Shown: piece after piece, positions 18,001 through 21,000 of the stretch | Layout: each line of letters starts with the position of its first letter | Numbering within the stretch: the first letter of the stretch is position 1 | From: Escherichia coli | GTDB lineage: Bacteria > Pseudomonadota > Gammaproteobacteria > Enterobacterales > Enterobacteriaceae | Length of the DNA: 64,000 nucleotides | NCBI RefSeq assembly: GCF_050920415.1 | Contig: NZ_CP169309.1 | Strand: one strand, 5' to 3' | Made by a program: the position numbers

Positions 18001-21000
18001 TAAAGATTTATCGCATACAAATTCTCGTCAGTTGCTTTAGTTTCAAAATGTTGTCAATTATAACTCGATGGCTTTCACTCGAAGTTTCTTTATAGTAGAG
18101 TTTCATGTTGCTTTTGAGTGGGTTAGGCACATACATATCTACACACTCTTTTATCACAACTGCTTTTCGTCTTCTGGGTTCGAGTTGTAGTGATTTGTCT
18201 ATACAAATCCTTGCCTCTTCAATTCTTTCATTATGAAAGTTGACAAGTGCTCTATAGTAGTAGAGAGAGGCTATATCAGTTGTGTGTATCTTAGCCTGTT
18301 CAAATAAGATATGAGATACTTTTTCTTGTCCAGACAGGCCAGTTATCAGTCCCATAATAGCTAAAATTTTTCCATCGACATTGGTTATGTCTGATACATA
18401 ATGTAAAAGCTCTAATGCTTTTTGAGCAGCAAGTTCAAGTTCATATTTTCCATGAAGTGCCAAAGACATATGGCATTCCGCTATCAGACAATAACATTCT
18501 GTTTTTAGCGTCTGTATATCACTTTTATTTTGTAATCCATCAAATATAGTCATAGCCCTGTAAATGCTTTCAGGAGTAAACTCGTAAAGTTCTTTCTTAC
18601 CAGCCAACAGTTCATCTGATAAATAATGATTCTTGTAACCTTGATCCGGTTTAGCTAATCTTACAGAACGCTCTGGATTATGTACCGTTTGAAGGATATT
18701 ATCTATAATAAATTGTGATGTGTTATGTAGTTCATCAACAGGAAGATGATTACTGGCGATGAGGAAAAGATTTTTAGCGTCGATCAGTTCAATGTATAAA
18801 GTTTTCACCGCGTTATTCTGGTTTATTCTTCCTGTAACGAAATAATCTGGCTTGAATCTTCTCAAAAATGAATTTTGCGATATGTGATCATTACAAAAAT
18901 TTGTCGCAGCCATCGGATAGGCATAAAGGCCATCGATTTTTTTATTTGAAATGTTTTGCACTAATTCCTGATTAAGTATTAATGGATCCAGGGTATTCAA
19001 TGAAGTGGTGAAAGGAAATATAGCTATGGAATAGTCTGAAGTGTTATCTTCATTTATTCTAGTTTTGAAAACCTGTCCACTGAAACGATAACCTTTCCGG
19101 TAGATTGTTTCTATGCAACGATCATAGCCAATTTTTTCAAAAATGCAGCGCAAAGAATAGATACATCTTGTCAGGGACTCGTCACTTACAATAATATTTT
19201 TCCATACTGATTCGATGATCATATCTTTCAGGACAACATGACCAGCGGATTCAAGTAATACGATCAATACTCCTAACTCTTTCGGTGGAATATAAATTTG
19301 CTCATTTCCTTGAGTAAGAATTCCATCTTCCGTGAGCGTTAATCCCTCAAGAAAATGATATGAGAATTTATTTTCTAAGTCCATTAGTTAACCTCTATGA
19401 AAAAATTGGTTTCTTGCATCCTGCATAAGCAATAGAAATAGTGGCTATTCATATTTATGTGTCATTAATGCTATAGGAGTTTACATTCGACATATCTATG
19501 GTTGTGTTCACTAATTTATCTTAGGAATTCAGTGATGTAATCTGAAATAGCCTTATTCAATTTTGATAAAATAGATTGTTCTCTAACGCGTTGAAAAATA
19601 ATAATTTATAGTGTGTTCTTAACTGTTTTAAGATGTTGATTTAAGAAAACATAAGAGAAGCTGGTCATAGTGGTTAACTGCACTATAACCAGCAATTTTA
19701 ACCAAAAGATTGTAATGCTTAGCCATTATCTTCTGAATTATCAGTTAAGAGTTCAATATATGCCTGCGCTTTGCTCTTAACACTTTCATCCTCACAATTG
19801 TTAATAATATGATAGAAACATTGCATTGCGTTATCGATATTTTTAGCCCCAATTTGACATTGACCCATACGATAAATAACTGAATAGTCATCATACGGGG
19901 AGTAATTGTAACTTAGTTTGTAAAGGTCATATGCTTGTTGATATTTCTTTTTTGACTGGCATACTGATGCAAAACCTTTTAGATATTCATGATTTTCGAA
20001 CGCATAAATGCACAGAAATTTATAATAAATTTCTGCGTCCGTTATATTACCTTTTTCATGGTAGTCGAATGCATATGCATATATTCTATCAAGGATATCA
20101 GGAGTCAATCCATGTAGTAATGCCAGATTTTCTCCTTGCGATAATGCGTGTTTTAGTTGACTTGCCCATTCATCACTGTTATTGAATATTTCAAGTGTAT
20201 CTGTGCTCATAATATTCCTCTGTGATGTGTTTCGTGATGCTAAATTATTATTGATTGACTCATTAATTTTTATGTATTTATCTTTTTTGAATTATGAGTT
20301 TTAAGCTTGCATTGCTTATGGGTATATTGGTTCATTATTAGTAAAAATACTGACCACTATAAACCAATAATGTCATTAGTTGTTTTGCTAATATTCACCT
20401 TATTAGTTATCTTATTTACGATATTTCATAAATGCCTTAATATGCATGACCTTGATTCATATTATCAATTTCCATTTTTTCGATGAAAATTAAAAAGGGG
20501 ATTTTTGCGAAGGGTCGTAAGTCGTCTGGTTTTTTTTCTTTATTATGTCTGATGACGAGGGGGGATAGTACATCGGTGCATATAGTAGAGAATTTATTCA
20601 GGTCTAAATTATTCTCTATTTTGGCCAGTTTTATGAGTTCATTTGTAGCCATACTCATTAAATCATCTGTTATCGGAAATTTATATATGCTCATAGCAGA
20701 TAATATTGCTTGCTGAATTATTTCTTCAGAAATATCCGCTATCTTTATTGACAAATCATGTGTTAGATATTTTCCTCCAAGAGATTCTTGTTCAATATAA
20801 TTTAAACCAGACCTCATCGTAATTTTAACTGGATTCACGAATTTCTCTTCATTTTTCTTATTTTTGTTCTCCTGATCAGGAACTAATGGTTGCAGTGGTA
20901 GGCTATTATTAATATTTCGTGGCTTCATTTTACATTTCTCTCATTTGATTAGAGCAAAATCCGAATTCGCAGCTTCTGATAATGTCAAATATCACCTTTT

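Follow-up and report, generated by a model that had tools for sequence, protein, structure and literature searches.

The window, a stretch of 64,000 nt of Escherichia coli DNA (contig NZ_CP169309.1), contains at about 15–24 kb the regulatory end of ETT2, the island of type III secretion system 2 in E. coli; the genes and sequence features of this region are collected in Table 1. YgeG matches Pfam TPR_3 (E=6e-23) and the PDB entry of IpgC (E=6e-32), and YgeH combines a Trans_reg_C (OmpR-type) winged helix with TPR and carries the RefSeq label of a HilA family regulator. These Pfam and PDB matches, together with the RefSeq annotation, show that the earlier note on this DNA had correctly named the chaperone gene ygeG and the HilA-like gene ygeH. 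The copy of the locus in the window is about 6% diverged from those of K-12 and O157, and matches of 99% or more were obtained in only 12 of the 5426 complete E. coli genomes. Insertions of IS2, IS1 and IS3 could be found at the locus in several genomes, in the 5′ end of ygeG, the 3′ part of ygeH and ygeI; since all of these copies lie outside the ygeG–ygeH spacer, activation of ygeH by an insertion sequence via the spacer was rejected.

Table 1. Genes and sequence features at the regulatory end of the ETT2 island, with positions in the window.
Feature	Position	Strand	Remarks
yqeI, yqeJ		minus	ETT2 regulatory end
yqeK, ygeK		plus
Lytic transglycosylase gene	17036-17539	minus
ygeI	17623-17841	minus
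ygeH	18008..19384	minus	HilA-family regulator, 458 aa; ORF list, RefSeq annotation, Pfam
Proximal ygeH upstream region, 177 nt	19385..19561	minus	Homology and low polymorphism
Shine-Dalgarno AGAGG	19392..19396	minus	Ends 7 nt before ygeH ATG; unchanged across the aligned lineages
Best sigma-70-like candidate promoter, ATGACA-N16-CACTAT	19438..19465	minus	Window allele below scan threshold
Distal spacer	19562..19642	minus	Higher polymorphism; no BLAST-significant homology in ygeG-less lineages
Match to IHF core consensus WATCAANNNNTTR	19629..19641	minus	Exact match AATCAACATCTTA; one mismatch in K-12 allele
Block TTCTTAAATC	19638..19647	minus	Overlaps distal tail; from alignments
T-rich tail UUCUCUUAUGUUUUCUU	19659..19643	minus	Directly 3′ of stem
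Stem-loop	19693..19660	minus	Candidate intrinsic terminator or 3′-end hairpin of ygeG transcript
ygeG	19719..20210	minus	IpgC/SicA-like class II T3SS chaperone, 163 aa; stop codon 19719-19721; ORF list, RefSeq orthologues
ygeF	20437-20928	minus

The spacer between ygeG and ygeH spans 334 bp, of which the 258 bp between the tail and ygeH have about 28% GC, confirming the AT-rich leader of ~260 bp that had been proposed to precede ygeH. The AT-richness is slight relative to the island, as the region 3′ of the stem (19385-19659) has 28% GC versus 33% in the island, and other island spacers are as low or lower (about 24–29%). ORFs overlapping the spacer are only of chance size (22–36 codons). Shortly past ygeG, beginning 25 nt after its stop codon and on the same coding strand, the spacer contains the inverted repeat GCUGGUUAUAGUG-CAGUUAAC-CACUAUGACCAGC, predicted to fold into a 13-bp stem (6 G-C, 1 G-U) with a loop of 8 nt and a dG of -19.4 kcal/mol. 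The repeat thus gives a stable, G+C-containing stem-loop on the transcribed strand, placed shortly 3′ of the stop codon and overlapping no gene, as would be expected of an intrinsic terminator.

Several null comparisons bear on whether such a hairpin would occur by chance. Its 101-nt context folds with z=-3.3, none of 200 shuffles being as good, and the stem-loop with a T-rich tail that the earlier note had placed past ygeG (19643-19693, minus strand) is thereby upheld. According to dinucleotide shuffles of the AT-rich 9 kb region, stems of at least 13 bp are expected 0.44±0.68 times per shuffled 9 kb (both strands) versus two in the real sequence, and both of these are on the minus strand, 22–25 nt past a stop codon (those of ygeG and ygeI); the probability that a stem of this length falls by chance within 60 nt of any one stop codon is about 0.0015. 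A simple terminator scan taken as a whole showed no enrichment (5 found versus 4.0±2.0 expected), so that the hairpin stands out by its stem length and position rather than by the overall count of the scan. It is present in one copy per genome in 3550 of the 5426 complete E. coli genomes and annotated in none of them. As a single-copy sequence without relatives in the 64-kb window, it was rejected as a repeat-family or REP-like element, and a search of 17000-21500 against Rfam 15 on both strands returned nothing at the permissive threshold of E≤1.

The hairpin resembles canonical intrinsic terminators, such as the trp attenuator and those at 30962-30988 and 47377-47400 in the window, in its stable stem closed by G-C with a loop within 3–8 nt, in its coding-strand position tens of nucleotides past a stop codon, and, for the window allele, in a U-rich though mediocre 3′ flank. 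Unlike them, however, it has a long stem with a relatively AT-rich upper half and a large loop (8 nt), C and A break up its U-tract, and most of its alleles start the tract with a non-U. The U-tract in the window, UUCUCUUA, contains five U in its first 8 nt and passed the simple scan. In the majority allele, of the K-12/O157 type, A and C replace the first two U of the tail (19659 and 19658, respectively), and these positions at the stem foot read AC in 41 and UU in 8 of 49 aligned copies. As estimated from the identity bands of a 56-nt query, the window-like version occurs in about 16% of ETT2-bearing complete E. coli genomes, and about 83% carry the K-12-like version with the poorer U-tract ACCUCUUAUG (starting ACC or CC). 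The K-12 allele has a 14-bp stem (-20.9 kcal/mol) and a tail starting CCUCUUAU, and the O157 tail is ACCUCUUA (ACCUCUUAUGC).

Scores for the three alleles rank accordingly, with T-tail scores of 2.9 for the window, 0.9 for K-12 and 0.5 for O157. A d'Aubenton-Carafa-type discriminant score, computed with our own implementation and ViennaRNA energies and hence on a rough scale, assigned -8.7 to the window allele, -44 to that of K-12 and -52 to that of O157, whereas the two canonical terminators in the window reached +6 and +24 and the trp attenuator +30. The scale can only be rough because rrnB T1, a strong terminator, receives -25 as parsed. Part of the tail owes its T-richness to something other than the hairpin, since the block TTCTTAAATC is conserved even where the hairpin is missing: it is invariant in E. 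coli, in the divergent lineage L080 and in E. albertii, and almost invariant in E. whittamii.

The weak U-tract, above all that of the majority allele, would also suit a reading in which the hairpin is a protective stem at the 3′ end, left when Rho stops ygeG transcription in the spacer and exonucleases trim the transcript back to the stem-loop. Such trimming of Rho-dependent transcript ends back to stem-loops has reportedly been seen in a high-resolution 3′-end mapping study. The spacer could offer Rho a suitable substrate, being long, untranslated, unstructured and richer in C (16%) than in G (12%) on the RNA; a structured leader was rejected, as the 285-nt spacer RNA folds like its shuffles (z=-0.09). 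For the K-12 island, the supplement of PMC7815308 places bicyclomycin-sensitive sites at yqeI, ygeF and ygeK but none at ygeG or ygeH; no rut site is recognizable from the spacer sequence by itself, and the five U in the first 8 nt of the window allele, right after a GC-closed stem, also speak against the need for Rho. We therefore regard Rho termination with trimming as an unlikely origin of the ygeG 3′ end. High-resolution 3′-end mapping of Rho-dependent transcripts is the topic of PMC6061677. The Term-seq supplements of Adams 2021 and TERMITe list no RNA 3′ end at ygeG or ygeH, which is unsurprising because the locus is silenced by H-NS in laboratory K-12.

Comparison among alleles and lineages gave evidence on the hairpin that is, on sequence grounds, neutral to negative. 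Among 49 E. coli and gut-metagenome copies, three stem changes preserve pairing, three break it and none is compensatory. The pair-preserving changes are one-sided (a G-U to A-U replacement and two C-to-U changes giving G-U), and the pair-breaking ones, the 042/A3176 allele among them, lower the stability to -12.6 or -14.2 kcal/mol; 042-like strains have a C-U mismatch in the stem. Five of the 26 stem sites are variable, a proportion similar to that in the remaining spacer (Fisher p=0.37). Thus, no selection on pairing could be detected among the 49 copies, and the maintained pairing expected of an intrinsic terminator was not found in them; the covariation pattern over these copies appears neutral, speaking neither for nor against an RNA structure. 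A stem of 13–14 bp is found in the K-12, O157 and window alleles. The hairpin is cut to an 8-bp remnant in L080 (YgeG 85% identical), and no hairpin is present in the spacer of E. albertii (YgeG 68% identical), which still spans 341 nt; gene order and spacing in both are as in E. coli. These two loci were found by a YgeG protein search followed by contig look-ups, and a scan of genome contigs with YgeH gave three divergent loci only. The hairpin therefore seems to be specific to E. coli proper.

This pattern fits another possible reading, that the hairpin is a young, neutral palindrome of E. coli and nearly inert, with ygeG and ygeH partly co-transcribed, an internal ygeH promoter in addition, and, as YgeH activates ygeG, a positive feedback loop between the two genes. 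The missing signal of selection on pairing, the absence or decay of the hairpin in E. albertii and L080 despite unchanged gene order and spacing, and the poor terminator scores of most alleles would all be expected under it, and the level of ygeG mRNA drops in a ygeH mutant (PMC4210603). Nevertheless, a stem of -19 to -21 kcal/mol located 25 nt past a stop codon is improbable by chance, the 13–14 bp stem is kept in the common E. coli alleles, and polarity would normally be expected from an untranslated gap of 275 nt, so that an inert hairpin with partial co-transcription appears quite unlikely to us.

The allele difference between G-U and A-U in the stem keeps the pairing on the transcribed strand, whereas the other strand of the window allele has an A-C mismatch (dG of -19.4 kcal/mol on the transcribed strand versus -16.7 on the other). 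That the stem is perfect on the transcribed strand only, through G-U, hints at a role in RNA and is the lone strand-specific pointer of this kind. It also weakens the proposal that a dimeric regulator of ygeH or ygeG uses the inverted repeat as its operator on the DNA, for which the geometry (two 13-bp arms, 8 bp apart) and the location upstream of the ygeH promoter region, within the published reporter fragment, would be suitable. No second copy or half-site relative of the repeat could be found in the 64-kb window and none elsewhere in E. coli genomes, and the repeat is about 275–310 nt upstream of the ygeH ATG. With a single copy, a DNA palindrome that is imperfect in the window allele, and a sequence that is not conserved in the lineages retaining the ygeH regulatory region, an operator is exceedingly improbable.

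For the promoter of ygeH, published work on the EAEC strain 042 provides the main evidence (Hüttener 2014, PMC4210603). There, the 'ygeH promoter region' of 042, fused to lacZ in single copy in a K-12 strain background, drives reporter activity that rises moderately at the onset of stationary phase; H-NS represses the fusion, an hns mutation relieves this repression, expression requires IHF when H-NS is present, and H-NS binds the promoter fragment specifically in gel shifts. The fragment is given in the text as 228 bp (-207 to +21), and in-silico PCR with the primers of that article yields 349 bp, window 19370-19718, indicating that the cloned fragment is the whole spacer with the hairpin included at its 5′ end. 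Under either fragment size the promoter is inside the spacer. The published +1 corresponds to window 19471 and is taken here as a predicted one, since the available text mentions neither RACE nor primer extension and the phrase 'transcription start' is absent from the main text. For ygeH, increases of about 5-fold when hns is mutated and about 150-fold when stpA is mutated as well have been reported (PMC12460168). A GadX ChIP-exo peak assigned to ygeH is inside the gene and outside the spacer.

Lineages that lack ygeG give further evidence. E. whittamii and Escherichia sp. E1V33 are without yqeK, ygeF, ygeG and everything else between ygeH and a LysM/M23 peptidase gene, and they carry an intact ygeH (62% identical). 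Upstream of it, homology to the window extends over the 177 nt before the ATG at 73% identity, BLAST-significant up to window 19561 and with none beyond. Within E. coli, polymorphism in the spacer is lowest over the same 177 nt (16 of 177 sites variable versus 29 of 157 in the remainder; Fisher p=0.015). This proximal segment is likely to comprise the promoter and 5′ UTR region of ygeH, judging from conservation. The hexamer at the -10 position of its best candidate promoter varies among alleles, being CATAAT in K-12/O157 (10/12), TATAAT in L080 (11/12), CACAAT in 042/A3176 and CACTAT in the window. A 22-codon ORF (19452..19384), joined to the ygeH start by a TAATG overlap, is open at equal length in E. 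whittamii; it was rejected as a gene, as it has 12 codons in E1V33, lacks a Shine-Dalgarno sequence and shows no coding signal, with 4, 8 and 5 substitutions at codon positions 1, 2 and 3, respectively (hand count on aligned sequences). The IHF match at the distal end of the spacer might be tied to the published IHF dependence of ygeH; it is not significant by count, with three consensus matches in the 64 kb versus 4.6 expected.

The claim of the earlier note that ygeH is controlled independently of ygeG finds support on two sides, from the 042 lacZ fusion with its H-NS and IHF control (PMC4210603) and from the ygeG-less E. whittamii and E1V33, which keep ygeH and the 177 nt of upstream homology. 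The evidence that ygeH has its own promoter controlled by H-NS and IHF is strong and already published.

In Salmonella, hilA of SPI-1 is transcribed from a promoter of its own, with a long 5′ UTR and an upstream repressing region, and it is silenced by H-NS/Hha, which IHF and HilD/HilC/RtsA counteract. The ygeH arrangement is similar in that YgeH is of the HilA family, with 042 YgeH complementing a Salmonella hilA mutant, and in that H-NS binds and represses the AT-rich region upstream of ygeH, which depends on IHF (PMC4210603). It differs in that ygeH is directly downstream of a SicA/IpgC-like chaperone gene of the same orientation, with a spacer of only 334 bp, and is without known HilD-like activator sites. 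The region also resembles the H-NS-associated 'promoter islands' of horizontally acquired genes: the list of 78 islands includes the K-12 ygeG/ygeH spacer (2989603, 468 bp) along with those of ygeF/ygeG and ygeH/ygeI (Panyukov and Ozoline 2013, PMC3661553). That concept describes dense predicted start points with low productive output and is silent on the hairpin and on termination (PMC3661553).

Taken together, we consider it reasonably probable that the spacer is an ordinary gene boundary within the H-NS-silenced ETT2 island, with a moderate hairpin terminator, Rho as a backup and an independent ygeH promoter downstream. According to this model, the 34-nt inverted repeat would fold as a stable hairpin in the ygeG transcript, followed in this allele by the U-rich stretch, and could act as a factor-independent terminator that is moderate, probably incomplete and weaker in most other alleles. 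RNA polymerase that reads through would synthesize about 275 nt of untranslated and unstructured RNA with more C than G, on which Rho could terminate. Transcription of ygeH would then initiate within the proximal ~180 nt of the spacer, at one or more promoters of its own; H-NS would silence this segment, with IHF assisting expression. Whereas the data show that the hairpin exists and, from the published fusion, that the spacer has autonomous promoter activity, we infer the termination at the hairpin, the Rho backup, the precise promoter hexamers and the start site. Judged by its sequence, the hairpin is a plausible terminator, most likely a moderate, possibly leaky and E. coli-specific one. 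Given the weak U-tract, the lack of selection on pairing and the absence of the hairpin in E. albertii, some read-through into ygeH may occur.

Such leakage would create a positive feedback, since a ygeH mutant has less ygeG mRNA, and it raises the further idea that the hairpin is a leaky insulator whose stem-foot alleles tune the ygeH–ygeG feedback and thereby the switch behaviour of ETT2 across lineages. The variants to be named for this idea are UU (~16%), AC (~83%), the C-U mismatch of 042-like strains and the absence of the hairpin in E. albertii; we hold such tuning to be very unlikely.

The significance of these results is small beyond annotation. The published 'ygeH promoter fragment' has the hairpin at its 5′ end, and since the hairpin varies by allele, data from K-12 or 042 may not carry over exactly to the lineage of the window. 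Strong polarity of ygeG deletions on ygeH would be unlikely. The own H-NS/IHF-controlled promoter of ygeH, already published, explains how the master regulator of ETT2 can be silenced and induced separately from the chaperone encoded next to it.

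The ETT2 (the second type III secretion system of E. coli) variant of the window diverges by ~6% from the alleles of K-12 and O157 and is less decayed than that of K-12, since ygeF (163 aa), ygeK (221 aa), a lytic transglycosylase gene (167 aa) and an orgB-like gene are all intact within positions 15000-24000, unlike in K-12. Separate, independent IS insertions were observed within the small ygeG-ygeH-ygeI region among the E. coli genomes matching 17500-21000 of the window (L072, L073, L074 and L075). At the 5' end of ygeG the inserted element was IS2 or IS1, and the genome 100% identical to the window is among those affected; the 3' part of ygeH carried IS2, and ygeI an IS3-family element. 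In these genomes the ygeG-ygeH spacer contained no IS insertion.

Upstream of ygeH, three blocks are conserved across E. coli, E. albertii and E. whittamii; the first is a tandem ATGCA(G/A)G, and the second is similar to the high-affinity H-NS motif tCGATAAATT. The -10 hexamer of the best ygeH promoter candidate varies among lineages, reading TATAAT in the divergent lineage L080, CATAAT in K-12 and O157, CACAAT in 042 and A3176, and CACTAT in the window, which suggests that basal ygeH expression differs among them. An ORF preceding ygeH is intact across all E. coli copies and has the same open length in E. whittamii, but spans only 12 codons in Escherichia sp. E1V33. No Shine-Dalgarno sequence was found for this ORF, most of its substitutions fall at codon position 2, and it is probably not a gene. 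Apart from the hairpin after ygeG, the stem following ygeI is the only one in the 9-kb region that reaches 13 bp; its K-12 and L080 version is an 11-bp stem with a terminator-like score on both strands.

Features around ygeH and ygeI in the window
Feature	Position	Strand	Description
Stem after ygeI	17570-17600	minus	14 bp, AACGAGATACUGAU-UAU-AUUAGUAUCUCGUU; 22 nt past ygeI stop codon
Upstream ORF	19384-19452	minus	22 codons; stop overlaps ygeH start as TAATG
Conserved block 1	19415-19426	minus	ATGCAGGATGCA
Candidate ygeH -10 hexamer	19438-19443	minus	CACTAT
Conserved block 2	19512-19520	minus	GATAAATTA
Conserved block 3	19536-19549	minus	TATTTCAGATTACA

The fragment used in published work on the ygeH promoter, including the gel shifts, was stated as 228 bp, from -207 to +21 (PMC4210603), whereas the primers given there would yield ~349 bp (window 19370-19718), a product comprising the whole ygeG-ygeH spacer with its hairpin.

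ETT2 is reduced to yqeH-yqeI-yqeJ and a ygeH-like gene in E. whittamii Sa2BVA5 (L004, 1-7365) and E1V33 (L006), where ygeF, ygeG and the secretion apparatus are all absent. In this remnant, 600 nt separate yqeJ from the ygeH-like gene, and a LysM/M23 peptidase gene comes immediately after the latter. Since the stand-alone HilA-like regulator has been kept intact (62% amino acid identity), a role outside ETT2 is suggested for it.
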